This document shows, piece by piece, positions 513-62,302 of a stretch of 64,000 nucleotides of DNA. Made by a program: the position numbers and the translations under genes. Position 1 is the first letter of the stretch; every line of letters starts with the position of its first letter. The notes under the pieces were generated by a model. It was not told where the DNA came from. It did not search any database and saw nothing but the letters and a program-made list of their open reading frames with translations. This DNA is from Vulcanimicrobiota bacterium (GTDB taxonomy: Bacteria > Vulcanimicrobiota > Vulcanimicrobiia > Vulcanimicrobiales > Vulcanimicrobiaceae): NCBI GenBank assembly GCA_027307235.1, contig DAHUXH010000001.1, positions 13,609-77,608 of the forward strand, read 5' to 3'.

Positions 513-1157
513 GTGTCCGAGCAGCAGCAGCGGTCGGCCGCGGTCGTCCCCATCCAGCAGCGGCGGGTCTGGCGCGATCTCGCGAAGATTCTCTCGACGG
601 TATTCAACCCGTTCCTGACGGCGCTTGCCCTTTTCATCATCCTCGCGCTCACACGTGCCGCCGACACCTTCGATTTCTGGCGCCTCATCTTGCTCTCGAC
701 GTTCTTCACCTCGATCGGGCCGATGGTCTATGTCTTCTGGCTCTACGCCAGCGACCGGATCAGCGATCTCGACATGTCGGTGCGGCACGAGCGCGAGGCG
801 GTGTTTCACGTCTTCGTCGTCTTCTATCTCGCGGGAACGATCGTACTCTGGCTCATGCACGTGCCGATGCTGCTGGTCGCGGCAATGGCCGGGTACACGC
901 TCTCGACCATCGTCGTGCAATACATCACTCGCTACTGGAAGATCAGCACGCATGCGCTCGGCATCACGGCGCCGCTCGTGATTTTGCTCATGCTCTACGG
1001 GCGCGCGCCGTTGCCGTTCTTGATCCTGATCCCGATGGTGTGCTGGGCACGGGTGTATCTGCGCGCGCACACGTGGGCGCAGGTCGCGGCGGGTGCGGGG
1101 CTGGCGGTGTTTTCCACCGTGCTCTTCTTCCGTCTTTTCCATGTCGGCGCACTGTAG
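513..1157 (+). CDS. PAP2-superfamily-like integral membrane protein
   Basis: 214 aa with about 6 hydrophobic helices. The C-terminal half has KISTHALG and [12 protein letters not shown], which resemble the PSGH and SRxxxxxHxxxD motifs of PAP2 phosphatases. The last Asp is replaced by Gln. Confidence 0.5.
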
Positions 1158-3812
1158 ATGAGTTCGACGCTGCAGCCGGCCGCTGCGACGTACGACCGCT
1201 TCAGCGCCAGTCTGTCCGCGGCCGTCCAGGCGGTGCGTCAGGCGTCCGAGTCGATCGCCGCGACCGCGCAAGAACAGACAACGTTGATGGTCGCGCTCTC
1301 CGAGACTGCGGGCATCCTCGCCAAGCAGTCGCGTGAGACATCCGAGCGTCTGGTGAGCGCGCAGTCGCATGCGCGAGCAGCCGAGGAGGATCTCGGCAAT
1401 TCGTTCGGCGTCGTTGAAGCGCTGCTGACCTCGGTGCGGCAGCTCGCCGAACTCTCTGCCGCCACTGCCGCGGCGATGGACGACTTCGGGCGGCTGATGA
1501 GCGAGGTCGAGCGCATGACCGAGTTTGTCGAAGACGTCTCCGACGAAACGCAGTTGCTGGCGCTCAACGCCGCCATCGAAGCGGCGCGCGCCGGAGCGCA
1601 CGGACTCGGTTTCGCGGTCGTCGCGGGCGAAGTCGGACGGCTCGCCAAAACGACGCACGAATCGACGCTGACGATCAAGCGTCTGGTGGTCGACGTGCAA
1701 CGCGAAGCGACCGCGACCATCGCGGCGGTACGCGCCAATGCGCAGCGTTCCGCGGAATCCGCGCCGTTGGCCGACGTCGCACGCGCGTCGCTGGTCGAGA
1801 TCGCGGAACTCGCTTCCGATCTCGCGCAGGCCGTCGAGCGTTCCGTCACCGGAGGGCGCGAGCACAGCGCGATCGCCAACGAGATGCAGCGCGACACCGA
1901 TCTGCTCGCCAATGCCGCCGCCAAGCAAGGACGCGAAGCCCTCGAATCAGCCTTTGCAACGCAGCGCCTCGCGTATTACGGTGCCGAGATCGCGTATATC
2001 TCACGCACGCGCTCGTCGACTGCACACGAGCACACCTCGTTGCGCGTCGCCACGCTGCTGCCGCGCGGCTATCCGCCATCGCGCGCGTGGGAGTTCGTCG
2101 CGGAGCGCATCGCCGAGCGCACCGGCGGCCGCCTGCGCCTCGAACTCGAGATTCCATTCACCGGCGGAAATGAATTCGAAGCGCTGCTGCGCGTGCGTTC
2201 CGGTGAACTGGACATGGTGAGCGTCACCACGTTTGTCGCGGGCGCACTGCTGCCGGCTGCGCAACTCTTCGATCTTCCGTTCGTTTTCGACGACGTCCAC
2301 CGCGCGCACGCGCTGCTCGACGGTCCGCTCGGCCGTCATGTGCTCGATTCGTTCGGTTCCTTCGGATTGACGGGGATGGCGTATTTCGAGAACGGCATGC
2401 GTCATTTCACCAACTCGCTGCATCCGATTCGCCATCCCTCGGATTGCCGCAAGATGCGTATTCGCATTCAGGACTCCGTTGTCTATCTCGCGCTCATGCA
2501 CGCACTCGGTGCCACGCCCAAAGTGATCCCCTTCCCGGAGTTGCGGACGGCGCTGGCCAACGGCGAGATCGACGCGCAGGAGAACCCGCTGGAAAACATC
2601 CATGGCGCGCGCCTTCACGAAACGCAGAAACACCTGACGCTGACGTCGCACGCGTACAACACGCAGATCGTCTTGGCGAACGTCGATCGGCTTCGCCGGT
2701 TGAGCGACGAGGACCGCGCCGTCGTCCGCGAGGTCTTCGCCGAGGCGACGGTCATCCACCGCCGCATCGCGGCTCAAGCGGAACTCGAAGCGCTGACGGC
2801 GCTGCGCAAGCATCTCGACGTGATCGAACTCACCGCCGGCGAACGTGAGGAGTTCGTCAAAGCATCGCGCTTCGTGTGGGAACGCATGGAGCCGCTCTTT
2901 CCGGTCGATCTCTACCTGCTGCTGATGCAGCGCAACCTGGACGCCTGGACGCCGAGCGCTGCGTCGTCGCACGGCCCGTCGCGCTCGTTCACCGTTGACG
3001 ACGTGGTCAACGCCATCGACGGATCGGTCCAAGCGATGCACGCGACCGGGTCGCACGTCGCCGGAAACGCCCGCGTTCAAGCGGACAGCCTGCGCATGCT
3101 CGGAAGACAATCGGCCAAGCTCAACGAGTCCAACGCGCGTCTCGCCGCCCAGTTCGCGGCACTGCGCGCGCGCTTCGACACGGTGGCGCCGCACGTCGCC
3201 ACCATGCGCAGCACCGTCGATGAGCTCATCGCGACCATCGAGGTGCTCTCGTCGATGGCCCTGCAAAGCCGCATCGCGCTCGAGCAGTTCGCTGCCTCGA
3301 TGAAGCAGATCGTCGACATCATCGCGCTGGTTCGCACCGTCTCCGACAAGACGAATCTGCTCGCGCTCAACGCCGCGATCGAGGCCGCGCGCGCCGGTGA
3401 TCACGGCAAAGGCTTCAACGTGGTCGCCGGCGAGGTGCGCAGTCTCGCCGACAAGACGAAATCGTCGACACAAGAGATTCGTAAGGTTCTCGTCGATCTC
3501 GAAGCGCGCGGAAAAGAGGCGGCCGTGGCGATCGAGTCGGGCGTCGCGCAATCCGAACACAGCTCGAAACAGGCGCGGGCCGCGCAGGATGCCTTCAAAC
3601 GCATCGAGTCGTTCGCGCAGTCGGCGCTTGCGATGCTTCTGGATGCCGAGAACGCGGCGCGCGACGAGGCCTCACGCTCGCATGCGATGTCCGGAGATTA
3701 CTCGCAGATGGCCGAACTCGTCGACGACTATGCCGGCGCCAGCAGCGACGCCTTGAACGTTGCCGCCGAACTCGAGCGCCAGCGCAAATCACTGTTTGCC
3801 ATGAGCGCATAG
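1158..3812 (+). CDS. Soluble methyl-accepting chemotaxis-like protein: MCP signalling domain - DctP/TRAP solute-binding-like domain - second MCP signalling domain
   Basis: 884 aa. There are two signalling-tip motifs: [34 protein letters not shown] (about aa 130-163) and [34 protein letters not shown] (about aa 730-765). A DctP-like segment lies between them (about aa 292-580: [46 protein letters not shown]). I see no hydrophobic TM segment or signal peptide. Confidence 0.8.
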
Positions 3813-3821
3813 GAACGCAGC

Positions 3822-4865
3822 ATGACCTTCGACACGACGACCCGTTTGACGCACCTCGCCGAATGCGCCGGTTGCGCGGCAAAGTTCGACCAGCGCTCGC
3901 TCGCGGCGGTGCTGGCGGGTCTTCCGAGCTTCGCCGATCCGAACGTGCTGGTCGGCAATGCGAGCGCCGACGACGCCGCGATCTACCGCATCTCCGACGA
4001 CGTTGCGCTGGTGCTCACCGTCGATTTCTTTCCGCCGATCGTCGACGATCCGCGCACCTTCGGGCGCATCGCCGCGACCAATGCACTCTCCGACATCTAT
4101 GCGATGGGCGCGACGCCGCTCGCGGCGCTCGCGATCACCGCGTTCCCGGATGAGAACGTCGATCCGGCGGTGCTCCACGCGATTCTTGCCGGCGGGATCG
4201 AAGCGGCGTCGCAGGCCGGGATCGCCATCGTCGGCGGACACACCGTCAAAGACAGCGAGCCGAAATACGGCCTCTCGGTTGTCGGGCGCGTGCATCCCGA
4301 ACGCCACGTGCGCAACGACTCCGGCCGCGCGGGTGACGTCCTGGTGCTCACCAAGCCGCTCGGCACCGGCATTCTCACCACCGCGCGGCGCCGCGATCTC
4401 ATCGACGACGCCGCGCTCGAACCGGCGATCGAGGCGATGACGACGCTCAACCGCGGTGCGTCGGAGGCGATGCTCGCAGCGGGCGCATCAGCCGCAACCG
4501 ACGTCACCGGATTCGGATTGCTCGGACACCTGCACGAGATGTGCGCGGCGCGCCTGGGCGCGCGCATCGACAGCAGCGCCGTTCCGTTGCTCGCGCGTGC
4601 GCTCGACCTCGCCCGCTCCGGTGCCGTACCGGGCGGAACGCGCACGAATTACGAGACCGCGCGCAGCCGCGGTGTCAGCTTCGATGCCGGTGTCGAAGAC
4701 GCGCTGCGGCTGCTCCTGTGCGACGCGCAGACGTCGGGCGGCCTCCTGATCGCGATACCGCCCGATCGCGCCGATCATCTCACGCGCGAACTGAACGCGC
4801 GCACCATCCCGCACGCCCGCATCGGCACCCTCACCGAATCACCTGGAATTCAGATACTCGCCTAA
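3822..4865 (+). CDS. selD: Selenide, water dikinase (selenophosphate synthetase), Cys-type
   Basis: 347 aa. The N-terminal loop LTHLAECAGCAAKF aligns to the SelD GAGCGCK loop and has Cys rather than Sec. AIR-synthase-like motifs are present: DDAAIY, VLTVDFF, ATNALSDIYAMGA, GGHTV. Confidence 0.85.
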   Translation: MTFDTTTRLTHLAECAGCAAKFDQRSLAAVLAGLPSFADPNVLVGNASADDAAIYRISDDVALVLTVDFFPPIVDDPRTFGRIAATNALSDIYAMGATPLAALAITAFPDENVDPAVLHAILAGGIEAASQAGIAIVGGHTVKDSEPKYGLSVVGRVHPERHVRNDSGRAGDVLVLTKPLGTGILTTARRRDLIDDAALEPAIEAMTTLNRGASEAMLAAGASAATDVTGFGLLGHLHEMCAARLGARIDSSAVPLLARALDLARSGAVPGGTRTNYETARSRGVSFDAGVEDALRLLLCDAQTSGGLLIAIPPDRADHLTRELNARTIPHARIGTLTESPGIQILA

Positions 4866-8062: not shown

Positions 8063-8449
8063 TCAGTGAAACGCCGAGATGCGGCCGAACATCACGAGGC
8101 CGATGTAGCCGGTTCCGAGCAAGACCAGCAAGCCGAGCGCTGAGAGCGCGACGGGGATCGCCGCCGAGACACCCGTGCGTTCACCGAGCCGCCGGCCCGC
8201 CACGTAGGCGGCGGTCGCCACCAGCGCGCCAACGATGTGCAATGAAATCAGTGCGGTTTTGCCGGCCAGCGCTGCGCCGACGATGCCCGCGTAGACGACG
8301 CCGATCAGCACCTGCACGCCGATCAGCGCGACCATGACCCGCCGCCCGAGTTGCACCCACCCGAGCACGAGCGCGCACAATATCACGAGAAACGCGAATC
8401 CCCAGTGGATCGCGTCGACAACACTCACGAGATTCATGGATGGGGCCAT
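8063..8449 (-). CDS. Small 4-TM membrane protein, unknown function
   Basis: Only the last 128 codons of ORF 8063..9040 look genuine (MAPSMNLVSVVDAIHWGFAFLVILCALVLG...). They are uniformly hydrophobic helices. The upstream part of that ORF is Arg-rich and antisense to bcp. Confidence 0.6.
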   Translation of the reverse strand: MAPSMNLVSVVDAIHWGFAFLVILCALVLGWVQLGRRVMVALIGVQVLIGVVYAGIVGAALAGKTALISLHIVGALVATAAYVAGRRLGERTGVSAAIPVALSALGLLVLLGTGYIGLVMFGRISAFH

Positions 8450-8497
8450 TCGCTCGCCGGGCGACGGAATCCGCCGCTCGCACGCGAACAAGGACGC

Positions 8498-8965
8498 ATG
8501 CTGTCGATTGGAATGACCGCCCCCGAGGTGACCCTGCGCGACGAAAACGGCGCAGCGATGCCGCTGTCGAGCCTGCGCACGAAAACGCTCGTGCTCTACT
8601 TCTATCCCAAGGACGACACGCCCGGATGCACGATGGAAGCGTGCGCGTTTCGTGATGCGTACGAAGAGTTCACGCAGGCCGGAGCCGAGGTGATCGGCGT
8701 CAGCAGCGACGATCCGTCGTCGCATGGACGCTTCACCGCCAAGCATCGCCTGCCGTTCCGCTTGCTCTCTGATCCCGACGGCAGCGCCCGCAAAGCATTC
8801 GGCGTTCCCAAGACGCTGGGCATTCTCCCCGGCCGTGTGACGTTCGTCATCGATACCGGCGGCGTGATCCGGCACGTCTTCAACTCGCAGTTTCTGGCGA
8901 CCAAACATGTCGCGCAAGCGCTCGCCGTCGTGACGGAGCTGGCCGCAGCCCCCATCGCGACCTGA
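8498..8965 (+). CDS. bcp: Peroxiredoxin, Bcp/PrxQ type
   Basis: Start chosen at ATG 8498 (MLSIGMTAPEVTL...). YFYPKDDTPGCTMEAC is the peroxidatic-Cys motif. About 155 aa is typical for Bcp. Confidence 0.9.
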   Translation: MLSIGMTAPEVTLRDENGAAMPLSSLRTKTLVLYFYPKDDTPGCTMEACAFRDAYEEFTQAGAEVIGVSSDDPSSHGRFTAKHRLPFRLLSDPDGSARKAFGVPKTLGILPGRVTFVIDTGGVIRHVFNSQFLATKHVAQALAVVTELAAAPIAT

Positions 8966-9060
8966 CCCGCTCCTCGACCGGAGAGCGGCCGAAAAACCCG
9001 AGAATTTCTTGCGAAGGGCGCATTCGTCGCCGCTTCGCATTCCGAGGCTACGATGCGCAC

Positions 9061-11421
9061 ATGATCGACTTGCGGATCGCTCGCGCGCGCATCGACGAAC
9101 TCGACGTGTATTGGCGCGCGGCCGATTACCTGGGCGCGGCGCAGTTGTACCTGCGCGGCAACGCGCTGCTCCGCGAACCGCTGGCTCCGCACCACCTCAA
9201 GGAGCGCCCGCTCGGCCACTGGGGCACGCAACCTGGCCTCAATGCGGTCTATACACACCTCAACCGCCTGATCTCGGAGACCGGGGCCAAGATCATGCTC
9301 GTCGTCGGCCCCGGACATGGCGCACCGGCGATTCTCGCCAACCTCTATCTCGAGGGAACGCTCGCGCTGTACGAACCACGTTTCGCATACGGCGAAGCCG
9401 GACTCACGCATCTCGTGCGCAGCTTCTCGTGGCCGGGCGGCATGCCGAGCCACGTCACCGCTATGACGCCCGGCGCAATACACGAAGGCGGCGAACTCGG
9501 ATACTGCCTCTCGCACGCCTACGGAGCCGCGCTCGACAATCCCGATCTGCTCGTCGCCTGCATCATCGGCGACGGCGAGGCGGAGACCGGACCGCTGGCC
9601 GCGTCGTGGTTCTGCAATCGGTTCCTCGACCCGCGAACGAGCGGTGCGGTGCTCCCGATCCTGCATGTCAACGGTTACAAACTTTCAGGACCGACCGTGC
9701 TCGGCCGCATGAGTGACGAAGAGATCGGCGCATACCTGACCGGGCTTGGATACGATCCGCTGATCGTTCACGGCGAGCACCTGGCGACGCTGCACGTCGA
9801 TCTGTGGAGCGCGCTCGACCGCGGGTACGCGCGTATCAGCGAGATCCAGCAGCGCGCACGCACCAGGAATACGGTCGCATCGCCATGCTGGCCGGTCATC
9901 GTTCTGCGAACGGAAAAAGGCATCACCGGTCCGGCTTACGTCGATGGAGTTCCCTGCGCTGGGAGCTGGCACTCGCACGGGCTTCCCTTCGACGATCCCG
10001 CGAGCAACGCGCAGCATCGAACCTTGCTCGAGGCCTGGCTGCGTTCGTATCGTCCAGATGAACTCTTCGACGAGCGCGGCTTCCCCAACGACCTCGTGCT
10101 CGAATCGCTGCCACGCCCGGAGCTGCGCATGGGGCGCAACCGGCATACCAACGGCGGCACGCTGCTTCGTCCGCTCGTATTGCCGCCGCTCGACCGCTTC
10201 GCCGTCGACATCGAAGAACACGGCCGGCCGGCCCTGTCCGCGACCGCGCGTTTGGGTGACTACCTCGCACGTGTCTTTCAAGCCGACGCGTCATCACACA
10301 CGTTTCGCCTCTTCTGTCCCGACGAAACGACGTCAAACAAACTCGACGCGGTCTTTTCACAAACCGATCGCGCGTTTCTCTGGCCGCTCGAACCCGGTGA
10401 CGAAGCGCTTTCACCTGACGGGCGCGTCATCGAGGTGCTGAGCGAACATACCTGCGAGGGCATGCTCGAAGGCTACATCCTGACCGGACGTCACGGCCTG
10501 CACGCCTGTTACGAGGGGTTCATCTCCATCGTCGACTCGATGATCCATCAGCACACAAAATGGCTCAAGATGAGCCGCGAAACGGCCTGGCGCGCACCGG
10601 TCGCGTCGTTGAACATCCTGCTCAGTTCACACGTATGGCGTCAGGACCACAACGGCTTCTCGCATCAGGGTCCGGGCTTCATCAACTCGCTGCTGACCAG
10701 TAAGGGCACATTCATTCGTATCTACCTCCCGCCCGACGCGAACACGCTGCTCTGCGCGACCGAACACTGCTTGCAGAGCCACGATCTGGTCAATCTCATC
10801 ATCGCCGGCAAGAACGAGATGCCGCAGTGGCTGGACGTCGCGCAGGCGCGCCTGCATTGCGCGCGCGGTGCGTCGATCTGGGATTGGGCGAGTACGGCGG
10901 TCGATGATCCTGAGGTCATCCTCGCATCGTCGGGCGACGTGCCGACGATGGAAGCGCTCGCGGCGATCACGCTCGTGCGCACCCACGTTCCGGATTTGCG
11001 CGTTCGCTTCGTGAACGTCGTGGACCTCATGACGCTGCCGTCGAGCGCCGATCATCCGCACGGGATGTCCGACGCGCACTTCGCCGAGATATTCGGAACG
11101 CAAACCCCCGTCATTTTCGCTTTTCACGGCTATCCGCGCGTGCTGCACGAACTGCTGTATCACCGCACAAATCCGCAGCGCTTTCACGTCCGCGGATACG
11201 AGGAAGAGGGAACGACCACGACGCCGTTCGACATGGTCGTGCGCAATCACATCAGCCGCTATCACCTCTTCCATGAACTCTTCCGGCGCGTACCGCGCTT
11301 CTCGTCGCGGATGCCGGAATTCGACGGCCAACTGCAGGGCTGGATCGAGCAACACCACGCGTACATCGTTGAACACGGCGTCGATGTGCCCGCGGTGACG
11401 ACGTGGAAGTGGAGCGATTAG
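9061..11421 (+). CDS. xfp: Xylulose-5-phosphate/fructose-6-phosphate phosphoketolase
   Basis: 786 aa. VYWRAADYLGAAQLYL, GHWGTQPGLN, IHEGGELGY, SSHVWRQDHNGFSHQGPGF. Full-length phosphoketolase pattern. Confidence 0.92.
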   Translation: MIDLRIARARIDELDVYWRAADYLGAAQLYLRGNALLREPLAPHHLKERPLGHWGTQPGLNAVYTHLNRLISETGAKIMLVVGPGHGAPAILANLYLEGTLALYEPRFAYGEAGLTHLVRSFSWPGGMPSHVTAMTPGAIHEGGELGYCLSHAYGAALDNPDLLVACIIGDGEAETGPLAASWFCNRFLDPRTSGAVLPILHVNGYKLSGPTVLGRMSDEEIGAYLTGLGYDPLIVHGEHLATLHVDLWSALDRGYARISEIQQRARTRNTVASPCWPVIVLRTEKGITGPAYVDGVPCAGSWHSHGLPFDDPASNAQHRTLLEAWLRSYRPDELFDERGFPNDLVLESLPRPELRMGRNRHTNGGTLLRPLVLPPLDRFAVDIEEHGRPALSATARLGDYLARVFQADASSHTFRLFCPDETTSNKLDAVFSQTDRAFLWPLEPGDEALSPDGRVIEVLSEHTCEGMLEGYILTGRHGLHACYEGFISIVDSMIHQHTKWLKMSRETAWRAPVASLNILLSSHVWRQDHNGFSHQGPGFINSLLTSKGTFIRIYLPPDANTLLCATEHCLQSHDLVNLIIAGKNEMPQWLDVAQARLHCARGASIWDWASTAVDDPEVILASSGDVPTMEALAAITLVRTHVPDLRVRFVNVVDLMTLPSSADHPHGMSDAHFAEIFGTQTPVIFAFHGYPRVLHELLYHRTNPQRFHVRGYEEEGTTTTPFDMVVRNHISRYHLFHELFRRVPRFSSRMPEFDGQLQGWIEQHHAYIVEHGVDVPAVTTWKWSD

Positions 11422-11891
11422 TGGAACTGCGTGACTCTGTTTCCGTCAATTGCTCGTGCGTGCAGGCCGAGCAGGCATTGCCGCGCGTCTTCGCAAGCCA
11501 CCGCGCCGCCGACGGATCGATCCGCTTGCCGCTGCGCGTGTCGTTACGTCATTTTGGGCTTCCCGACGAACTTGCGGTCGAACGCGACGTCACGGTTCAC
11601 GTGCGCAAGCAGCGGGACGAAGCCAACCTCAATGACATCTTCAAGATCGACTGGTCACCGGCAAACGACGGTCCGTATCCGTCCTTCTCGGGGTCGCTGA
11701 TCGTCTGGGGCGAAGACGATCCCAGACACTCGTTCATCGAAGTCATGGGCTCATACGAACCACCCTTCGGTACGATGGGTGAACTCTTCGACGCAGCCAT
11801 GGGCTATCGTATCGCCAAACATACCGCTCACGAATTCCTCATCGCACTTGCGTCGCAGATCGAACGCGTCGCCGCCGAAACCGCAGGGTGA
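11403..11891 (+). CDS. Hypothetical protein, coupled to xfp
   Basis: 162-aa ORF with good coding appearance. An in-frame GTG at 11421 overlaps the xfp stop (TAGTG), so the start is either 11403 or 11421. I recognise no motif. Confidence 0.5.
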   Translation: MEVERLVELRDSVSVNCSCVQAEQALPRVFASHRAADGSIRLPLRVSLRHFGLPDELAVERDVTVHVRKQRDEANLNDIFKIDWSPANDGPYPSFSGSLIVWGEDDPRHSFIEVMGSYEPPFGTMGELFDAAMGYRIAKHTAHEFLIALASQIERVAAETAG

Positions 11892-11894
11892 TCA

Positions 11895-12347
11895 TTGATG
11901 TTCAAACATATCTTCGTGGCCGTCGATGGATCGGAGTGCTCGCTGCAAGCCATGAAGGTGGCAGCGGGGCTCGCCAAGGAGCAAGGCTCGCAATGCACGG
12001 TGTGCAGCGTCGTCGACATCGTGCGCGCCGCATCCTCGATGGCGTTCGCGTATGGCGATATCGTCGATGCCTGGATCAAAGAACTTCAGCGAGAAGCGCA
12101 CGAGGTCGTTACCTCCGCGCAGGCAAGCGTCGCCGATCTTGGCGTTTCGCTCGGGGAGACGGTGGTTGAAGGCTACCCGGCCGATGCGATCGTCGATACG
12201 GCCTCTAGCGCGCATGCGGATCTCATCGTCATGGGCAGCCACGGCCGCTCGGGCTTTCGCCGGCTCTTTCTCGGCAGTGTCGCCGAATCGGTGCTGCGGC
12301 TGTCGCCGGTCCCGGTCCTCATCGTTAAGGAACAGCAGTCACCGTAG
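11895..12347 (+). CDS. Universal stress protein (UspA family)
   Basis: 150 aa. FKHIFVAVDGSECS...ADLIVMGSHGRSGFRRLFLGSVAESVLRLSPVPVLIV, the classic Usp ATP-binding G-2x-G-9x-G(S/T) region. Confidence 0.9.
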   Translation: MMFKHIFVAVDGSECSLQAMKVAAGLAKEQGSQCTVCSVVDIVRAASSMAFAYGDIVDAWIKELQREAHEVVTSAQASVADLGVSLGETVVEGYPADAIVDTASSAHADLIVMGSHGRSGFRRLFLGSVAESVLRLSPVPVLIVKEQQSP

Positions 12348-12842
12348 GCGTCTGGGTCGGCTTGGGCGGTAGGGGAACACCGCCCCCACATCGTGCGCGT
12401 GAGGCGCCAGGCGCGAGCGCACGCGCAGACGTGCTTTTCTCCAGATTTTCGCCCCGATGACGCGATAGTCGTTTTCACGAATATACAGCGGTGCGAGTTC
12501 AAACCGGTCGATTTCGTCATTTTCGAACAATCGCGAGCAACTCGACAGCACGTGCGTCAGTGTGGCTATCATCTGTGCGGTGAGCGGAACACCTTCGGTG
12601 TGCAATTGCTCGAGCATCGATTCGGCGGCGGTACCCGGCACCGGAGACAGACGCTCCACAGGCCTGTCGCCCGTGCTGATGACGATCTTGCGGGAGCCGT
12701 CACCTTCGACGATCCCCTCGATCCGCAACGGGATCCCCCGCTCGAGTTCGCCGTGGGCGAGATAACGCGCATCGGTAACGGGGACGTGAATGCCGTACTC
12801 ATCGAGCATGGTACGGACGTCGCGCCCACGCAATGGGATCAT
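12339..12842 (-). CDS. Hypothetical protein with truncated ATP-grasp-like ends (acetate-CoA ligase/succinyl-CoA synthetase beta-like)
   Basis: 167 aa. The N-terminus RDVRTMLDEYGIHVP and the C-terminal FELAPLYIRENDYRVIGAKI resemble the first and last segments of ATP-grasp_2/5 domains. The central nucleotide-binding part is missing. The start overlaps the hsp20 stop (ATGA). Confidence 0.4.
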   Translation of the reverse strand: MIPLRGRDVRTMLDEYGIHVPVTDARYLAHGELERGIPLRIEGIVEGDGSRKIVISTGDRPVERLSPVPGTAAESMLEQLHTEGVPLTAQMIATLTHVLSSCSRLFENDEIDRFELAPLYIRENDYRVIGAKIWRKARLRVRSRLAPHAHDVGAVFPYRPSRPRRLR

Positions 12843-13330
12843 GCGCCCTCGACCGTCACCTTCTGCGGGCGCGAGCCTTCCACGGGCTGCGCGGTGACCG
12901 TTAGAATCCCGTCTTTGAGCGTCGCGTGGATCGACTTCGGATCGATGGGCTCGGGCAACACGATGACGCGATGCAGCGCATTGCGGCGAATTTCCTTGAA
13001 ATGGTACTCGGCCTTGGACTCTTCGCGGCGTTCCTCTCGTTTGCCCGAGATCACGATGCGATTGTCGTAACCTTCCACCTCAATCTCGTTCTTGGCGAAT
13101 CCTGGGGCGGAAATCTCAGCGATATAGCTGCCGTCCTTTTCGTAGAGATCGGCCGGGAAGGTCGGACTGATCGCGCCCGCACCGATGTCGAACCATTGGT
13201 CCATCATACGGCGCATCGCTTCGAATTGTGAGTCGAAGAACGGAACCCCGGTCGGGCTGAACCAGCGTTCGAGCGGACGCCGTGTTTTCGGCTCGATGGT
13301 ACCGGTCGTGGTTTCAGTAGTCTGTGTCAT
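12839..13330 (-). CDS. Hsp20/alpha-crystallin family small heat-shock protein
   Basis: Start set at ATG 13330, with GGAGG 6-7 nt upstream. Alpha-crystallin core: ADLYEKDGSYIAEISAPGFAKNEIEVEGYDNRIVISGKR...RVIVLPEPIDPKSIHATLKDGILTV. Confidence 0.9.
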   Translation of the reverse strand: MTQTTETTTGTIEPKTRRPLERWFSPTGVPFFDSQFEAMRRMMDQWFDIGAGAISPTFPADLYEKDGSYIAEISAPGFAKNEIEVEGYDNRIVISGKREERREESKAEYHFKEIRRNALHRVIVLPEPIDPKSIHATLKDGILTVTAQPVEGSRPQKVTVEGA

Positions 13331-13521
13331 CGGGTGAACCTCCATCCCACAGTATGCGAAAGAGATACGCGCTTCTTGAGCAGTTCCGATGAACAATCCA
13401 TGAACCGCGCCTTCACCAAAACTGCGCATCCGTGACGTACCATGTCATCGGAAACGAGGCGCCGCCGGTTTGGGAGAATCGTGAGCGAACGCTCGTCTAC
13501 TATTCGAAGGAGTAAAGAACC

Positions 13522-14166
13522 ATGATCACCGATTCCGAGTTGCACCGCAACGTGCTTGACGAACTCGAATTCGAGCCGCGTGTCGATTCGCGCGACATCG
13601 GCATCGCCGTCAATGCCGGCATCGTGACGATGACCGGAAAGGTCCGCAGCTTCACCGAAAAATGGGCCGCCGAGGACGCTCTTAAACGCGTCGACGGAGT
13701 TCGCGGGTTAGCCAACGAGCTGATCGTCGAACTTGCAGGCACACATCAAGTCGACGACACTGACCTTGCACAGACCGCCTCGAATTTGCTGCGCTGGACT
13801 CCCGGTTGCGAAGACATTCAGGTGGCCGTGTCGCACGGCGTCATTACGTTGAACGGAGAGGTCGACTGGCAATATCAAAAATATGAAGCCGAACGACTCA
13901 TACGCCCACTGCGCGGCGTCATCTCCGTCAATAACGTGATCGAGCTGCGTCACCGTGTCGCACCCGCGGACGTCAAACGCCGCATCGAGGGCGAGTTTCA
14001 ACGAACCGCTAGCTTGGATGCCAAAGACATCGATGTGACGACGCACGATGGCGGCGTCAAACTGACCGGCACCGTGCATAGCTGGGCTGAACGCCAGAAC
14101 GCCGAACGCGCCGCCTGGTCGATTCCGGGCGTGATGCGTGTGGAGAACGAACTTGCGATTGCATAA
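13522..14166 (+). CDS. BON-domain protein (three BON-like repeats, OsmY-like, no signal peptide seen)
   Basis: 214 aa. The repeated pattern D..I.V.V..G.VTLTG.V occurs three times: IGIAVNAGIVTMTGKVRS, IQVAVSHGVITLNGEVD, IDVTTHDGGVKLTGTVHS. Confidence 0.8.
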   Translation: MITDSELHRNVLDELEFEPRVDSRDIGIAVNAGIVTMTGKVRSFTEKWAAEDALKRVDGVRGLANELIVELAGTHQVDDTDLAQTASNLLRWTPGCEDIQVAVSHGVITLNGEVDWQYQKYEAERLIRPLRGVISVNNVIELRHRVAPADVKRRIEGEFQRTASLDAKDIDVTTHDGGVKLTGTVHSWAERQNAERAAWSIPGVMRVENELAIA

Positions 14167-14635
14167 CATACTGCGCTGTGCGGGTGGAACCGCAGCGCTG
14201 ATCGCTCTTGCGCTCTCGCCGCTCGGGGCTCAAACGCCGGCTTTGCAACAGACTCCCGGATCCCAGATCGCGGTCACGTCGTGCGACGCTCATCGTCACG
14301 ACATCAGCCAGCGCCACGGCTGGATCGACCCATACGGCATCTACCACCCGGCCGCGATGGACTTTCCGTATGAAGACGCCTTCCTCGCCATCACCTACAA
14401 GAACACAGCGCAGGTGGCAGCGACTGAGATCGACTTCGGCTTGGTTGCGCGCAGTTCGCTGGTTGCCGTGGCGAAGGATGTCGGGACGTTCAGCACGGGA
14501 GCCGTGATCGATCACGAGTTTTCGATCAGTCGCCAAGTGTTGCCGCTCGGAACCGCATTTCCGTACTGCGCGGTATTACGCGTGAAATATGCCGACGGAC
14601 GAGTGTGGACCAACCCGAATCCTCCGGAAATCTAG
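14138..14635 (+). CDS. Secreted hypothetical protein
   Basis: 165 aa. Signal-peptide-like segment AGGTAALIALALSPLGAQ. Overlaps the BON gene end by 29 nt, so the true start may be further downstream. No recognisable motif. Confidence 0.45.
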   Translation: MWRTNLRLHNILRCAGGTAALIALALSPLGAQTPALQQTPGSQIAVTSCDAHRHDISQRHGWIDPYGIYHPAAMDFPYEDAFLAITYKNTAQVAATEIDFGLVARSSLVAVAKDVGTFSTGAVIDHEFSISRQVLPLGTAFPYCAVLRVKYADGRVWTNPNPPEI

Positions 14636-14653
14636 GCCCCAGGACCGCAACGG

Positions 14654-15694
14654 GTGCGCATTCTGTCTCTTGACACCGGGTCGTCATCGCTGAAGTTCAC
14701 CCTGTACGACGTCCAAGGAACGGCGTGCGCTCCGGTCTTTTCGGATGAACTCGTCGATCTCGATTCCTCGTGGAACGCTCAGACGGTCATCGAAAAGGTG
14801 TGGAGCGCATGCGGCCTGGCCGCGGCTGCAGCCGATGCCGCCGGTCATCGCATCGTCTTCGGAGGCCCTGAGCACCGTGGGCCGATGCGTGCGACACCGG
14901 GCCTCCTCGACGAGATCGAGCGCTACGTGCCGATAGAACCGCTCCATCTTCGAAGCGCGTTGGATGTCATCTACGAAGTTGCGCGCCGCATCCGAGATCT
15001 GCCGCAAGTGCTGTGTTTCGATACGGCGTTCCATCGTTCGATGCCGCCGATCGCCAAGCGTTTCCCGCTGCCCGGCGATATCGATCCCATCGTGCAGCGC
15101 TACGGATTTCATGGACTTTCATATGAATACGTCGTCGCACACGTTCGCGAGGCATCGATCGGGCGCGTCGTCATCGCGCATCTGGGCAACGGCGCGAGTT
15201 TAGCTGCGCTCGCGAACGGCATGCCGATCGACACGACCATGGGATTCAGCCCGCTCGGCGGATTGATGATGGGCACGCGCCCGGGCGACCTCGACCCGGG
15301 CGTGCTGTTGTATCTGCTGCGGTCCGGTTACGACGCCGCGTCGCTGACCGAGTTGCTGAACCGCCGCTGCGGATTAGCTGGCGTATCCGGTTCGACATCG
15401 AGCATGCAAGCGCTCCTCGCCGCCGCCGCAACCGACGCGCGGGCAGCGCAGGCCGTCGATCTCTTCGTCTATCAGTTGACCAAGCACATCGGCGGGATGA
15501 TCGCCGCGCTCGGCGGCCTCGACACACTGATCTTCACCGGCGGAATCGGCGAACACGCGCAACCGATTCGCTCGCGCGTCGAGCAGGCACTCGCCTACGC
15601 GCGCTGCCGCACGATGGTGGTGCGCACGGACGAGAATCTCATGATCGCGCGCCACACGGCGGCCATGCTAGCATCTACGGGCGCCTCGCGTTAG
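14654..15694 (+). CDS. ackA: Acetate kinase (short form)
   Basis: 346 aa, GTG start. ILSLDTGSSSLKF, FDTAFHRSMP, RYGFHGLSYEY, AHLGNGASL, GTRPGDLDPG, IFTGGIGEH, RTDENLMIA. These are the acetate/propionate kinase signatures. Confidence 0.85.
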   Translation: MRILSLDTGSSSLKFTLYDVQGTACAPVFSDELVDLDSSWNAQTVIEKVWSACGLAAAAADAAGHRIVFGGPEHRGPMRATPGLLDEIERYVPIEPLHLRSALDVIYEVARRIRDLPQVLCFDTAFHRSMPPIAKRFPLPGDIDPIVQRYGFHGLSYEYVVAHVREASIGRVVIAHLGNGASLAALANGMPIDTTMGFSPLGGLMMGTRPGDLDPGVLLYLLRSGYDAASLTELLNRRCGLAGVSGSTSSMQALLAAAATDARAAQAVDLFVYQLTKHIGGMIAALGGLDTLIFTGGIGEHAQPIRSRVEQALAYARCRTMVVRTDENLMIARHTAAMLASTGASR

Positions 15695-16857
15695 CGCGCG
15701 ACCGGCACTTGCCTCGCGCGAAGGACGCCATCAACGGTCTCGAGGTAGGCTTGCCCAACCTTCTCCCACGTCATCCCGTGTCCGAAGGCGTAGGCGCGCT
15801 TGGCCATGGCGTCGCGCGCGAGGTCGTGCTCGATGATGCGTGTGAATGCTGCCAGCGTCGCACCCGCGTCCGCGAACGGCACAAGGACGCCGCGTTCCAT
15901 CGCCAAGACTTCGCGTGCGTAGTCGTGCGGAGCCGACAGGACGGCTTTTCCCGCTCCCATCGCGTACGCCAGCGTTTCGTTCGTCACGTGTTCGACGTTT
16001 AAGAATGGACTCACGTAGACGTCGGTCGCCGCGAGGTAACGCACCACTTCAGGAAGCGTCAGGTGGCGGTCGATGGTCACGACGTTCATCTCGGCGTCAT
16101 AGCGGCGAATGAGCGCACGCAGTTCCTCGCGATACTCCTGGCGTTGCCGCATCGGGACGTTCGGGTGCGCCGACCCGGCGATCACGTAGAGCACGTCGGG
16201 GTGGCGACCCGCGACCGATGCAACGGCTTGGATGGCCGTCTCCAGACCCGCATCGCTTTCGGTCGCGCCGAACGTGGTCAACACGAAGCGCCCTTCGAAT
16301 CCCACTGAGTGCTTCATCTCAGCGGTCTGGGCGAATGCCAGATCGGGAACACCGTATGCAATAATGTCGACGAGCCGTGGATCGACGGAATAGCGTTCGA
16401 TCAGCAGGGCTGCCTCCGTTTCGGAGAACACGACCATCCGTTCGCTGCGGCTGCACAGAAATTGCGTGAGCGAGAGCTGGGTGGGCGTCGGATCGGCCCG
16501 TACGGTGTGCAATGTCAAGATGAACGGCTTGCGAAGCGCTTCCACCAGATCTGCCAGCCATGAGCCGTCCGGCCCGCCGTAGAGCCCGTATTCATGCTGG
16601 ATATTGAGCACGACCGATGGATGCTGATTCACGAACTGTGCGGTAGCGGCATAGCTGGCACGATCGAATTGATCCAGCCGAGCGACTATCTGTTTGGGGT
16701 AGAGATACTTCGTGTCTCGAGCGTCGTCGACAGCCACGATTTCGCTCGACGTTCCAAGCTGCGCATCGAACGCCGGCAACAGGCTTGCGGTGTAATTCGC
16801 AATGTTTGATTGCCGTGGTGGATACGCTCCCAGGAACAGTACTGGCGAATCGGACAT
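15691..16857 (-). CDS. Glycosyltransferase, GT-B fold (group 1/GT4-like)
   Basis: Start set at ATG 16857 (MSDSPVLFLGAYPP) with GGAGGG upstream. The C-terminal half has YLAATDVYVSPFLNVEHVTNETLAYAMGAGKAVLS, typical of the Glycos_transf_1 region. Confidence 0.75.
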   Translation of the reverse strand: MSDSPVLFLGAYPPRQSNIANYTASLLPAFDAQLGTSSEIVAVDDARDTKYLYPKQIVARLDQFDRASYAATAQFVNQHPSVVLNIQHEYGLYGGPDGSWLADLVEALRKPFILTLHTVRADPTPTQLSLTQFLCSRSERMVVFSETEAALLIERYSVDPRLVDIIAYGVPDLAFAQTAEMKHSVGFEGRFVLTTFGATESDAGLETAIQAVASVAGRHPDVLYVIAGSAHPNVPMRQRQEYREELRALIRRYDAEMNVVTIDRHLTLPEVVRYLAATDVYVSPFLNVEHVTNETLAYAMGAGKAVLSAPHDYAREVLAMERGVLVPFADAGATLAAFTRIIEHDLARDAMAKRAYAFGHGMTWEKVGQAYLETVDGVLRARQVPVAR

Positions 16858-16987
16858 GACACCCTCCGAGTGAAGCATCGCGTTTGGGTGCGAATCCATG
16901 AGGAAGATTCTTGGAAGGGCGGTTCTCCGGGTCTTCAAACGATGCGGCTACCATGACGGTGCGCCGGCACATTGCGGGGAGTTCTTC

Positions 16988-17761
16988 ATGAATCGAGTCC
17001 TGGGAAAAGTCGCGATCGTCACGGGCGGTGCAATGGGCATCGGGAAGGCCTGCGCCCTCATGCTGGCCCGCGAGGGCGCGATGGTGGTCGTCACCGACAT
17101 CGACGCTGCGAGCGGTGGTGCCGTCGCGGGACAAATCGAGCGCGAAAACGGCAAGGCGATCTTCGTGAAACACGACGTCGCCTCCGAGAGCGACTGGAGC
17201 GTTGTGATGCGCGACACGCTTGCCACGTTCGGACGCCTCGACGTCCTGGTGAACAACGCCGGGATCGGAACGGTCGGCACCATTGAAGAAGCGACGCTCG
17301 AAGCATGGCGTCACCTCATGAGCATCAACTGCGACGGCGTCTTCCTCGGCATGCGCTACGCGATCGCCGCCATGAAGGCGTCGGGCGGCGGATCGATTGT
17401 GAATCTTTCCTCGATCTTGGGGCTGGTCGGCGACGGCGTTGCCGCTGCCTACTGTTCGAGCAAAGGCGCCGTGCGCTTGATGAGCAAGTCGGCGGCGCTG
17501 CACTGCGCCAAGTCAGGGTACAAGATCCGGGTCAACTCGGTGCATCCCGGCTACATCGAAACGCCGATGGTCGAGCATTTTCTCGATCTTGCGGCTGAAC
17601 GGCGTGCTCAGACTCTCAAAGACATTGAAGCCCTGCATCCGCTGGGTCACATCGGTGACGCCAGCGACGTCGCGTACGGCGTGCTTTACTTGAGTTCGGA
17701 TGAATCGAAGTTCGTCACCGGCAGCGAACTCGTCATCGACGGGGGCTACACCGCTCAATAG
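16988..17761 (+). CDS. Short-chain dehydrogenase/reductase (classical SDR)
   Basis: Start at ATG 16988 (MNRVLGKVAIVTGGAMGIG). TGxxxGxG, NNAG and YCSSK (YxxxK) motifs are present. Confidence 0.9.
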   Translation: MNRVLGKVAIVTGGAMGIGKACALMLAREGAMVVVTDIDAASGGAVAGQIERENGKAIFVKHDVASESDWSVVMRDTLATFGRLDVLVNNAGIGTVGTIEEATLEAWRHLMSINCDGVFLGMRYAIAAMKASGGGSIVNLSSILGLVGDGVAAAYCSSKGAVRLMSKSAALHCAKSGYKIRVNSVHPGYIETPMVEHFLDLAAERRAQTLKDIEALHPLGHIGDASDVAYGVLYLSSDESKFVTGSELVIDGGYTAQ

Positions 17762-17762
17762 C

Positions 17763-18209
17763 ATGATCGAAATCCTCGCGGACGATGAGATCGAACAGAT
17801 GCTGAAGGAACAAAGCGTCGGGCGCCTGGCCGTGCATGCCGACGGACAAACCTACCTCGTTCCGATCGCCTATGCGTATGCGAACGGCTGCATCTATGGT
17901 CACTCAGCGGAGGGACGCAAGGTGCGCATGATGCGGAAAAATCCGTACGTTTGTTTCGAGGTCGATGCGGTCGGCGATCTCTTCACGTGGCGCAGCGTGA
18001 TCGCATGGGGCACGTTTGAAGAGCTTCACGGCGACGACGCCGACGAGGCCATGCACATTTTACTGCTGAGATTTCTGCCGATGAAAACGCATCCGACCGT
18101 GCGAAGCATGTCGCAGCCGCGCCCGGGCGTCGACCCGTCGGCGGCCATCATCTATCGCATTCATCTGACGGAGAAGACCGGTCGCTTTGAGCGAACGGCC
18201 TTGACGTAG
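17763..18209 (+). CDS. Pyridoxamine 5'-phosphate oxidase-family (flavin-binding split barrel) protein
   Basis: Start at ATG 17763 (MIEILADDEIEQMLKEQSVGRLAV...). The pattern GRLA....G..YLVP..Y.....IY.HSA.G.K is typical of the Pyridox_ox_2/PNPOx-like family. Confidence 0.7.
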   Translation: MIEILADDEIEQMLKEQSVGRLAVHADGQTYLVPIAYAYANGCIYGHSAEGRKVRMMRKNPYVCFEVDAVGDLFTWRSVIAWGTFEELHGDDADEAMHILLLRFLPMKTHPTVRSMSQPRPGVDPSAAIIYRIHLTEKTGRFERTALT

Positions 18210-18212
18210 ATC

Positions 18213-18884
18213 GTGAGTTCCCGCTTCATCAACCGCGCGCACGCCGGCCGCGAACTCGCGCAACGCCTCCTTGCCTATGCGGACCGCCCTGATGTCATCG
18301 TCCTGGCGCTGCCGCGCGGCGGCGTTCCCGTCGCCTACGAAATCGCCACGCGTCTACACGCACCCATGGACGTCTATGCCGTTCGCAAGCTCGGCGTGCC
18401 GGGGCACGAAGAGTTGGCGATGGGTGCGGTCGCACCCGACGGCACGACGATTGTCGACCGCCAACTCCTCGACTTGGTAGGCGTGAGCACCGAGGAATTC
18501 CATGCCGTCGTGCAGCGTGAGCTCGCCGAAATTCGCCGCCGCGAGCACGCCTATCGCGACGAGCGGCCGCGGCCGAGCATCGACGGCAAGACCGTTTTGG
18601 TCGTCGACGACGGCCTAGCCACCGGCGCCACCATGAGCGCGGCGGTCAACGCGTTACGCGCACAACATCCGGCGAAGATCGTCGTCGCGGCGCCGGTCGG
18701 CTCGCCGGAGACCTGCGGGATGCTCGCAGAGATCGCCGACGACGTAGTCTGCGTCGACATGCCGCTCGCATTCGGTGCGGTCGGTATGTACTACGACGAT
18801 TTTCAGCAGACCGGCGATGACGAAGTACGCCAGCTCCTCGCACGAGCGGCCGAAGAGGCATCCAAGCGATGGAACATCGTGTGA
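18213..18884 (+). CDS. Phosphoribosyltransferase-family protein
   Basis: 223 aa, GTG start. FINRAHAGRELAQRL, LALPRGGVPVA and the PRPP loop VLVVDDGLATGATM. Confidence 0.85.
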   Translation: MSSRFINRAHAGRELAQRLLAYADRPDVIVLALPRGGVPVAYEIATRLHAPMDVYAVRKLGVPGHEELAMGAVAPDGTTIVDRQLLDLVGVSTEEFHAVVQRELAEIRRREHAYRDERPRPSIDGKTVLVVDDGLATGATMSAAVNALRAQHPAKIVVAAPVGSPETCGMLAEIADDVVCVDMPLAFGAVGMYYDDFQQTGDDEVRQLLARAAEEASKRWNIV

Positions 18885-19534
18885 CGCCGCCCGCTGCCGA
18901 TGTCGTCTTGACCATCCCCGGCGGAGTGCTCGGCGCTACGCTCGCGGTGCCCGACCATCCGATCGGTGTCGTGCTCTTCGCTCACGGAAGCGGCAGCAGT
19001 CGCTTCAGCCCGCGCAATCGTTTCGTCGCTGAACGTCTTCAACGCGCGAAACTTGCCACGATGCTGATCGACTTGCTGACCACCGACGAAGAGCGCACCG
19101 ATCGCGTGACCGCTGAGTTTCGATTCGACGTGTATCTGCTGGCGCGGCGTTTGGTCGCGGCGACGGAATGGGTCTCGCTTCATTTTGCGGCCGCACCGTT
19201 GCCCATCGCCTATTTTGGTGCGAGCACCGGGGCCGCGGCGGCGTTGATAGCGGCGGCCCGCTACGGCAGCGTCATCGTCGCCGTCGTGTCGCGCGGCGGC
19301 CGGCCGGATCTGGCCGGCGAGGCGCTCGCGCGCGTGCGCGCGCCGACGCTGCTCATTGTGGGCGGCGACGACGAAGCGGTGATCGCCCTGAACCAAAGCG
19401 CTCGCAGCGCGATGCGCGCACACAGCGAGCTTGAGATCGTGCCGGGCGCGACGCATCTCTTTGAAGAGCCCGGCGCACTGGAACGCGTAGCCGAGCTTGC
19501 CGCGAACTGGTTTTCTCGATACTGCGCGGCGTGA
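18869..19534 (+). CDS. Alpha/beta hydrolase, dienelactone-hydrolase-like
   Basis: 221 aa. VVLFAHGSGSSRFSPRN...YFGASTGAAAAL (nucleophile elbow G-x-S-x-G)...LLIVGGDDE...GATHLFEEPG. Confidence 0.75.
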   Translation: MEHRVTPPAADVVLTIPGGVLGATLAVPDHPIGVVLFAHGSGSSRFSPRNRFVAERLQRAKLATMLIDLLTTDEERTDRVTAEFRFDVYLLARRLVAATEWVSLHFAAAPLPIAYFGASTGAAAALIAAARYGSVIVAVVSRGGRPDLAGEALARVRAPTLLIVGGDDEAVIALNQSARSAMRAHSELEIVPGATHLFEEPGALERVAELAANWFSRYCAA

Positions 19535-23505: not shown

Positions 23506-23958
23506 ATGTTTAGAAAGCTCTTGGTGCCGCTCGACGGATCGGAGTGCTCCGAGGAAGCTTTTTCGCTCGCGATCGACATTGCGCGTCAGCACACTGCCGA
23601 ACTCATCGTCTGCGTGGTCGCCGATCCCGCGCAGATTGCAAGCTACGTTCCGGCGACCGGGGCGTCGAGCGAGTCGTGGATCAAACGCCTGCGTCACGAA
23701 GCCGGTGAGATCGTCGACGACGCCGTCGGCCGCGCGCGCAGCCGAGGCGTGACGTGCAACGGCGAACTGCTCGTCGAAGGCGGCACTGCGGCTGCCCTAG
23801 TCGCGCACGCCAAGAGCAGCCACGCCGATGGCATCGTGATGGGAACGCACGGGCGCACCGGCGTCGCCCGCGCCCTCTTCGGCAGCGTCGCAAGCGCGGT
23901 CGTCCGCGACGCCGAGTGCGCGGTCATCACCGTGCGCATGGCACGGCGCCACTCGTAA
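23506..23958 (+). CDS. Universal stress protein (UspA family)
   Basis: 150 aa. FRKLLVPLDGSECS...ADGIVMGTHGRTGVARALFGSVASAVVRDAECAVITV. Paralogue of 11895..12347. Confidence 0.9.
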   Translation: MFRKLLVPLDGSECSEEAFSLAIDIARQHTAELIVCVVADPAQIASYVPATGASSESWIKRLRHEAGEIVDDAVGRARSRGVTCNGELLVEGGTAAALVAHAKSSHADGIVMGTHGRTGVARALFGSVASAVVRDAECAVITVRMARRHS

Positions 23959-42315: not shown

Positions 42316-42334
42316 GGCACTTCGCGCGTTCTCT

Positions 42335-42356
42335 CCGCAGGTGCGGCTACCTGCGG
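42335..42356. promoter_or_regulatory. Perfect 8-bp inverted repeat in the divergent kinase / KdpD-N intergenic region
   Basis: CCGCAGGT-gcggct-ACCTGCGG, lying between GTG 42315 (minus strand) and ATG 42360 (plus strand). Confidence 0.3.
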
Positions 42357-42359
42357 CGG

Positions 42360-45137: not shown

Positions 45138-45143
45138 TCGTCC

Positions 45144-47210: not shown

Positions 47211-47211
47211 G

Positions 47212-62276: not shown

Positions 62277-62302
62277 GGACCAGGGGTACCGTTACAGTGA
62301 CC

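Follow-up and report, generated by a model that had tools for sequence, protein, structure and literature searches.

A 64,000-nucleotide stretch of contig DAHUXH010000001.1 from a Vulcanimicrobiota bacterium (assembly GCA_027307235.1, positions 13,609 to 77,608; called here the window, meaning the whole stretch that was analysed) was found to encode a soluble 884-residue protein in which a complete DctP-type solute-binding domain, of the tripartite ATP-independent periplasmic (TRAP) class, stands between two signalling hairpins of the methyl-accepting chemotaxis protein (MCP) type, designated MA1 and MA2. We consider it likely that this protein is a cytoplasmic chemoreceptor, reading an intracellular organic acid via its tethered DctP domain and passing the signal on via the junction of that domain with MA1. 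The receptor family to which it belongs is real, conserved, uncharacterised and misnamed, and combines the double-signalling-domain receptors with sensors of the solute-binding-protein (SBP) type.

Domain content of the receptor

In the list of open reading frames (ORFs) of the window, the receptor gene occupies 1158..3812 on the plus strand, and its 884 codons begin with an ATG contiguous with the TAG stop codon of a PAP2-like ORF at 513..1157 (sequence ...CACTGTAG followed directly by ATGAGT), the abutting TAGATG having already been noticed when the DNA was read without database searches (the sequence-only reading). Scanning of the whole protein with Pfam gave matches to MCPsignal in two stretches and to DctP across residues 301-577 (209.5 bits; cut-off 23.4). 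With the N-terminal 292 and C-terminal 290 residues scanned alone as separate fragments, MCPsignal (PF00015) scored 85.4 and 111.5 bits respectively, each above its Pfam cut-off of 34.6 bits, and the receptor also passed the NCBIfam thresholds for TIGR00787 dctP (194.4 bits; cut-off 175) and NF037995. No HAMP domain was detected in the receptor by the Pfam scan and no transmembrane segment by hydropathy, the highest Kyte-Doolittle mean over 19 residues being 1.65, within the DctP core. Inspection of the sequence found neither a hydrophobic nor a twin-arginine signal at the N-terminus, and the DctP domain, which begins at residue 294 behind the first hairpin, showed no signal peptide or lipobox on the same hydropathy basis.

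The sequence-only reading had proposed a soluble, HAMP-less 884-residue ORF with two MCP signalling domains around a complete DctP domain, and had expected MCPsignal twice and DctP once from a profile scan; the Pfam, NCBIfam and hydropathy results bear this out, with all three matches over threshold, and both of the tip peptides that it quoted were found in the receptor. Its further point, that canonical MCPs have one signalling domain, holds in part: this protein is indeed duplicated, but two-hairpin receptors are already known (DosM, a precedent that this reading overlooked), so doubling alone does not set it apart.

An AlphaFold2 (AF2) model built on the family alignment had a mean predicted local distance difference test (pLDDT) score of 84 and a predicted template modelling (pTM) score of 0.62, with low confidence confined to residues 1-7, 286-291 and 603-608. 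The features of the receptor gene and the gene upstream, with the evidence for each in brackets, are as follows; conservation refers to an alignment of 52 family members.

1158..3812, plus strand: whole gene, 884-residue soluble MA1-DctP-MA2 receptor (ORF list; Pfam and NCBIfam; 82 other full-length homologous clusters).
1173..2006, plus strand: MA1 (hairpin 1), residues 6-283, helices 6-144 and 146-283, about 20 heptads per arm (MCPsignal 85.4 bits; AF2; no indels in 52 sequences).
1542..1646, plus strand: MA1 tip, residues 129-163, non-canonical, with L150 and G160 invariant (tip comparison with relatives and other MCPs).
1929..2006, plus strand: junction helix from MA1 to the sensor, residues 258-283, strongly conserved (invariant columns G258-E277; junction alignment with two-domain relatives).
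2007..2036, plus strand: linker 1, residues 284-293, variable (pLDDT below 50 at 286-291; mean column conservation 0.44; indels at 288-292).
2037..2927, plus strand: DctP / TRAP solute-binding domain, residues 294-590, with R436 at nucleotides 2463-2465 (Pfam; TIGR00787; PDB matches; Foldseek).
2928..2993, plus strand: linker 2, residues 591-612, of variable length and sequence (pLDDT below 50 at 603-608; mean column conservation 0.42; insertions after 603-604).
2994..3806, plus strand: MA2 (hairpin 2), residues 613-883, helices 613-745 and 751-883, of MA1 length and register at an offset of 601 (MCPsignal 111.5 bits; AF2; in-register comparison; CtpM model).
3345..3449, plus strand: MA2 tip, residues 730-764, K751 and R761 kept, N754 in place of the usual Ala (tip comparison).
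513..1157, plus strand: PAP2-like membrane protein upstream of the receptor (Pfam PAP2, 26.7 bits, slightly below the cut-off).

A conserved and misnamed family

Besides the window protein, a search of 5.8 billion proteins recovered 82 other full-length clusters of 877-903 amino acids and 53-74% identity, with Pfam content identical to that of the receptor, from NCBI, JGI, ENA and Logan assemblies and on contigs of up to 2 Mb. Members with a taxonomic name are assigned to Candidatus Eremiobacterota, Baltobacteraceae, Vulcanimicrobiaceae or Velthaea, with one labelled Verrucomicrobiae. When 1.84 billion representatives of clusters at 50% identity were searched with a HMMER profile of the family, the three-part architecture came down to one full-length representative (P0068) plus fragments. 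The MA1-DctP-MA2 family is a single tight group restricted to the phylum Eremiobacterota. Across the 52 aligned members the hairpins are free of indels save for one 1-residue insertion in one sequence, and other variation in length falls at the termini, at residue 336 inside DctP and in the two linkers flanking DctP.

So unusual an architecture could also have come from a chimeric assembly, or from two or three genes fused by sequencing error, and in one relative, L003, the hairpin and DctP parts are split by a stop codon. Recurrence of the full 877-903-residue architecture in 82 other clusters from several assembly sources excludes an assembly chimera, however. Base composition and codon bias are uniform over both domain junctions, the trees of MA1 and MA2 are congruent (see below), and the GC content at third codon positions of the receptor gene (0.81) is usual for genes of the window; we give an artefact of either kind practically no credence.

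The public name of the family is 'DctP family TRAP transporter solute-binding subunit' or 'TRAP-type transport system periplasmic protein' (NCBI PGAP and JGI; P0002-P0083, P0090-P0104, P0305-P0316). It is assigned automatically from the single top-scoring model and is misleading for these receptors; as they are named as transporter subunits, chemoreceptor counts are too low, and TRAP counts too high, in Eremiobacterota and others. Two unreviewed UniProt entries from a mine-drainage metagenome, E6Q620 and E6PCG5, carry the architecture. The sequence-only reading had asked whether this might prove a common, already annotated family: the architecture is deposited and has been auto-named as a TRAP subunit, yet it is uncharacterised and phylum-restricted. 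In the literature we found no account of a DctP-chemoreceptor fusion or of the three-part family, only general statements on SBP sensors, SBP-type Pfam domains being known in general as sensor domains of signalling proteins. A contig search with the generic tip peptide LLALNAAIE returned ordinary MCPs, with no Eremiobacterota genome among the matches listed.

The DctP domain as a probable cytoplasmic sensor

The DctP domain matched 82 PDB sequences, the best being 4p47 (E 2.8e-48), and its model superposed by Foldseek on solved TRAP binding proteins with TMt of 0.87-0.91 and root-mean-square deviations of 2-3 Å; all of the top 50 Foldseek matches of the receptor model were TRAP binding proteins. 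Nine residues of the domain are invariant in the 52-member alignment (R415, R436, D472, Q474, E475, N476, H498, Y500 and N501), and R436 aligns with the conserved TRAP-family arginine in 4p47. In the TRAP family this arginine (R147 of SiaP) pairs with the substrate carboxylate. Judged from its sequence, the domain looks ligand-competent, with an organic acid as the expected ligand class. No solved structure shares more than about 32% identity with it, too little to name the ligand; reading a ligand from the nearest structures was considered and dropped on account of this low identity and because the two top matches with a substrate in their descriptions disagree (7bbr, sugar acid; 9dsy, C4-dicarboxylate).

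The fold and the signature residues, the carboxylate arginine included, are common to the receptor domain and the periplasmic TRAP SBPs (DctP, SiaP, 4p47, 7bbr, 9dsy). These are, however, secreted, stand-alone proteins that serve DctQM permeases, whereas the DctP domain of the receptor is signal-less and cytoplasmic, with no permease genes nearby: neither DctQ nor DctM genes were found by Pfam among the approximately 45 genes of the window, nor beside five further receptor loci (L001, L002, L083, L085, L087). The public name implies that the protein is a TRAP-transporter solute-binding subunit feeding a DctQM permease, its coiled coils being incidental, and the passing of both NCBIfam thresholds, together with the use of this name by NCBI and JGI, speaks for it. 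But a domain that has no signal peptide or lipobox, that is set between two hairpins well above Pfam thresholds and that lacks DctQ and DctM at six neighbourhoods makes this highly improbable, and in practice the topology refutes it.

About 30-35 representatives, recovered with the same profile from the 1.84 billion and also in the search of 5.8 billion proteins, have a hairpin and then a C-terminal DctP domain (profile matches spanning approximately 12-590 in about 30 of them), and are either soluble proteins of about 600 residues (P0095, P0127) or proteins of about 700 residues with N-terminal transmembrane segments, such as P0101 of Sporomusa carbonis, a membrane-anchored form in which HAMP is present. 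As no membrane segment lies between hairpin and DctP in the anchored forms, the DctP domain must be cytoplasmic. These two-domain proteins are the nearest sequence kin of the receptor (33-39% identity). Like it, they have a hairpin, then a C-terminal arm of similar length, then a cytoplasmic DctP domain, and the length of this arm (of MA1 in the receptor) is conserved when its junction with DctP is aligned with that of relatives P0091-P0131; unlike it, they end at DctP, with a single hairpin that has a canonical tip, and are presumably ordinary homodimers. A cytoplasmic DctP sensor behind a hairpin is a recurrent, multi-phylum design, to which the receptor described here adds a second hairpin. 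The two-domain relatives are likewise unstudied and mostly named as TRAP binding proteins; one partial sequence, on a 2.4-kb contig, is labelled Xanthomonadales. At L003 (9539..11485), from Candidatus Dactylopiibacterium carminicum, an ORF with transmembrane segment, HAMP and hairpin stops and a DctP ORF starts 10 bases on; the locus represents a hairpin-DctP receptor that has either become a pseudogene or is naturally split.

Duplication and divergence of the two hairpins

MA1 and MA2 are of equal length and in register at an offset of 601 residues, each with approximately 20 heptads per arm, and the two regions share 41% identity over 120 residues (E 2e-22). MA2 matched the NCBIfam model of Pseudomonas aeruginosa CtpM over 197 residues without gaps, which suggests the 40-heptad class, that of CtpM. 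In a tip-centred neighbour-joining tree (crude, with no bootstrap) the MA1 and MA2 clades were sisters with congruent internal branching, and the group formed by both had as its sister the hairpins from the soluble two-domain relatives. The sister clades, congruent branching and equal hairpin length support the internal duplication that the sequence-only reading had proposed, and would fit an ancient event in the family ancestor, followed by co-evolution of the two copies.

The two hairpins have not been conserved equally. Mean column conservation by quarter was 0.69-0.86 for MA1 and 0.56-0.77 for MA2 in the 52 sequences, and the last 25 residues of MA1 ahead of DctP are near-invariant (258-277 invariant), while the linker from DctP to MA2 is variable. 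At the MA1 tip, L150 and G160 are present in 52/52 sequences, whereas MA2 has K/R and R at these positions; the two-domain relatives have R in 19/19 and R in 16/19, and 16 other MCP tips have R/K and R. From an in-register mapping onto the Tsr sequence, we take the two positions to be those of Tsr R394 and R404, and MA1 residues L133, L136, N137, I140 and R144 to be those of Tsr I377, L380, N381, V384 and R388, in the CheW/CheA-P5 interface. MA1 has no acidic residue at the position of Tsr E391, where MA2 keeps one, and MA2 mostly has N or D where others have Ala (Tsr A397). In array models Tsr R394 touches CheA P3 and P4, and R394C/S mutants are partly defective; Tsr R404 comes within 4 Å of CheW in two array structures, and its salt bridge with E402 stabilises the trimer. 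As read from these alignments, the tips are diverged, MA2 being canonical and MA1 conserved yet degenerate.

One explanation of this divergence is that only MA2 signals, MA1 being a degenerate, non-signalling element (autoinhibitory, a stalk for oligomerisation or a site for another partner), and that MA2 forms ordinary homodimers coupled to CheA and CheW. MA1 is without the equivalents of Tsr R394, R404 and E391, which MA2 keeps, and MA2 outscores MA1 on MCPsignal (111.5 against 85.4 bits). MA1 is nevertheless the better conserved hairpin, with a tip that is invariant and not decaying, and it retains the other residues of the CheW/CheA-P5 interface if the mapping onto Tsr is right. The two-domain relatives, moreover, have no signalling domain besides the equivalent hairpin, the tip of which is canonical. 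We regard a silent MA1 as improbable.

Proposed signalling and arrangement of the hairpins

A chemoreceptor is ordinarily a symmetric homodimer, but its signalling is asymmetric: just one subunit of the pair is turned towards the kinase, and one is displaced when ligand binds. How much this asymmetry matters is hard to test when the subunits are identical. The fixed asymmetry between the two tips of the receptor was unexpected. In the mechanism that we propose, the DctP sensor, shorn of signal peptide and transporter partners, would bind an intracellular organic acid via R436, and closure of this Venus-flytrap domain on its ligand would be transmitted to the hairpins, chiefly through the invariant junction helix that ends MA1. 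The duplicated hairpins would be specialised, MA2 keeping the tip for CheA/CheW contact and MA1 carrying the link to the sensor. MA1 would pair with MA2, within the chain or domain-swapped, in an asymmetric pseudo-dimeric four-helix bundle, the two halves of which would be bridged by one sensor, and the receptor would act on a CheA kinase whose gene lies elsewhere in the genome.

As for topology, we lean tentatively towards the hetero-bundle MA1:MA2, because the tips lose residues in a complementary manner, the hairpins are of equal length and the linkers are flexible enough for the chain to fold back; on physical grounds the high effective concentration of neighbouring hairpins would favour it too. 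If the hairpins pair, this would be a natural asymmetric receptor whose distinct hairpins have diverged at CheA/CheW residues. In a single-chain form of this bundle, an intramolecular pairing that the sequence-only reading had suggested and which we hold possible but somewhat doubtful, the chain would be its own 'dimer', the DctP lobes sitting on different halves of the bundle and acid binding shifting one hairpin relative to the other; were this true, it would be the first such receptor with fixed asymmetry and one sensor per bundle. That the tips of such a single chain would split their jobs, one keeping the CheA/CheW contacts and the other not, is a suggestion we make with similar reserve.

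Several observations weigh against the cytoplasmic organic-acid receptor with paired hairpins. The family has no member with a known ligand, partner or phenotype, and at the loci examined no che genes were found near the receptor. A canonical methylation motif is not conserved in either hairpin, which makes adaptation, and dependence on CheR/CheB as well, uncertain: a search for methylation sites gave no strict motif and one relaxed match, kept in 1/52 sequences, and the invariant AQEQT at MA1 residues 37-41 resembles a methylation site but is off-pattern. Both linkers flanking DctP are predicted with low confidence, so that rigid mechanical coupling is not evident. The distal half of MA2 is less conserved than that of MA1 (0.56-0.65 against 0.69-0.73), which different environments fit better than one shared bundle. 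The pTM of the receptor (0.62) hardly differs from that of a one-hairpin control, P0095 (0.59), and is uninformative on packing, and prediction of a monomer would in any case be biased toward self-packing. Finally, DosM, the one receptor with two hairpins that has been studied by experiment, has the form of an extended rod. A test of hetero- against homo-pairing by core packing and charge was dropped, as there was no template and the assignment of heptads and layers was too uncertain.

In an arrangement like that of DosM, the receptor would be a homodimer in which MA1:MA1' and MA2:MA2' point apart and span two CheA/CheW baseplates, with the DctP domains in the mid-plane, so that it would both tether the layers and sense a metabolite. 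DosM (VC1403 of Vibrio cholerae), the sole characterised double-signalling-domain receptor, works in this way, with a tip at each end and bridging both CheA/CheW layers in cytoplasmic arrays of the F9 class; the soluble receptors studied so far form two-layer arrays, and about 2% of complete genomes contain a full F9 cluster. Fusing a hairpin-DctP protein to a hairpin of the opposite layer would be a simple step from the two-domain relatives, the unequal distal conservation and differing tips fit two non-equivalent environments, and sensor-less double-MCPsignal proteins of about 650 residues occur among the same search matches. DosM and the receptor are alike in being soluble, free of transmembrane segments and possessed of two MCP hairpins on a single chain, and either may serve to link or organise cytoplasmic receptor arrays.

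DosM, however, has its domains in tandem with nothing between them and is itself encoded in F9 clusters, beside a triple-CheW gene (with cheA, cheB and cheR). The hairpins of the receptor are separated by about 330 residues, comprising the 297-residue DctP domain and two flexible, variable linkers, which cannot be a rigid spacer, and neither the triple-CheW hallmark of F9 nor any adjacent che gene was found in the window or at five other loci. In a published survey, moreover, 98% of DosM homologs are sensor-less, the sole sensor seen being CZB. The tips also speak against this arrangement: the 16 comparison tips, those of the double-tip proteins P0106, P0117 and P0119 included, all keep R/K and R, but MA1 has lost both, so that a homodimeric MA1 tip would have neither arginine. 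We consider a DosM-like homodimer rather unlikely; were it right, no earlier array spanner of this kind would have had a metabolite sensor midway between the two layers, and the receptor would give a handle on what cytoplasmic arrays sense. Either way, a TRAP binding protein has been put to use as a sensor inside the cell, in about 30-35 sequence families from several phyla.

Two known kinds of chemoreception offer partial parallels to the proposed mechanism. In the C-terminal-sensor chemoreceptors (Helicobacter TlpD, with CZB) the signal enters, as proposed here, at the distal end of the bundle behind the hairpin, the CZB domain of TlpD being placed after the signalling domain. In SBP-dependent chemoreception (docking of the Tar/Trg type) the stimulus is a closed, ligand-bound binding protein, as we propose here. 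The receptor differs from both in that its sensor is a covalently tethered TRAP binder in the cytoplasm, followed by a second hairpin. The other double-MCPsignal proteins found were, besides the sensor-less ones, tandem membrane receptors and P0109, a metagenomic protein of 1067 residues with the order CHASE3 - MCPsignal - PAS - PAS - MCPsignal, in which a sensor also lies between two hairpins; this is apparently a fusion of a membrane receptor and a soluble PAS receptor.

Genomic context and chemotaxis partners

The absence of cheA, cheW and cheY noted in the sequence-only reading was upheld: Pfam scans of the approximately 45 predicted genes of the window found none of these, nor dctQ or dctM, and in the other loci no che genes were found within 10 kb of the receptor gene in L001, L002 and L087, or beside it in L083 and L085. 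Pathway partners do occur in the phylum: Vulcanimicrobium alpinus, its single cultured representative, carries cheA, cheW, cheY, cheC, cheB and cheR, although only three of its genes are annotated as mcp. This species lacks flagellin and moves by type IV pili, on which its phototaxis is based. The window itself holds a second MCP, missing from the sequence-only reading, of 726 residues (32641..34821, minus strand), membrane-bound and with a canonical tip. The N-terminal approximately 270 residues of this protein have several hydrophobic segments and no Pfam sensor domain, and may be a membrane-embedded sensor.

The receptor gene is an orphan, and the order of genes around it varies between clades. 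In L001, from the closest clade, the receptor follows a PAP2 gene as it does in the window, an order absent from L002 and L087. In these two, from a clade at 55% identity, the receptor lies after a beta-lactamase-like gene and before an ABC transporter of the branched-chain-amino-acid type, which directly follows it on the same strand (L002, 12716..17006; L087, 12730..17020); this transporter is complete (Peripla_BP_6, two permeases and two ATPases) and is conserved in the two genomes. In the window, the gene directly downstream of the receptor (3822..4865, plus strand) encodes an AIRS/AIRS_C protein (SelD/ThiL/HypE-like). It is missing from L001, where a glutamate racemase gene directly follows the receptor, and it looks like a lineage-specific insertion.

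Other features of the window

A kdpABC operon (42300..44558, plus strand, and 44562..48912, minus strand, for the whole region) adjoins a gene for a 752-residue protein that matches only the N-terminal sensor domain of KdpD, in two stretches, with no HisKA or HATPase match. The listed start of this KdpD-like ORF overlaps its neighbour by approximately 340 nucleotides and the true start is probably later. Just upstream of the kdp region are genes for a GAF-HisKA-HATPase kinase and a NarL-type regulator (40091..42642, minus strand). The gene for a stand-alone Hpt protein of 148 residues (62243..62689, plus strand) adjoins der (EngA), plsY and efp; neither a kinase nor a receiver is encoded close to it. 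Four ORFs of 225-360 residues (8063..9040, minus strand; 12393..13070, 27536..28618 and 31052..32053, plus strand) had no Pfam match at E 0.001; three are said to pass a codon-bias filter, and 12393..13070 and 31052..32053 are listed as not retained. Lastly, the region 9061..20439, with genes for a phosphoketolase (9061..11421), an acetate kinase (14654..15694) and a phosphotransacetylase-like protein (19531..20439), looks like a phosphoketolase/acetyl-phosphate module; of two genes for universal stress proteins, one is inside it (11895..12347) and the other further downstream (23506..23958).

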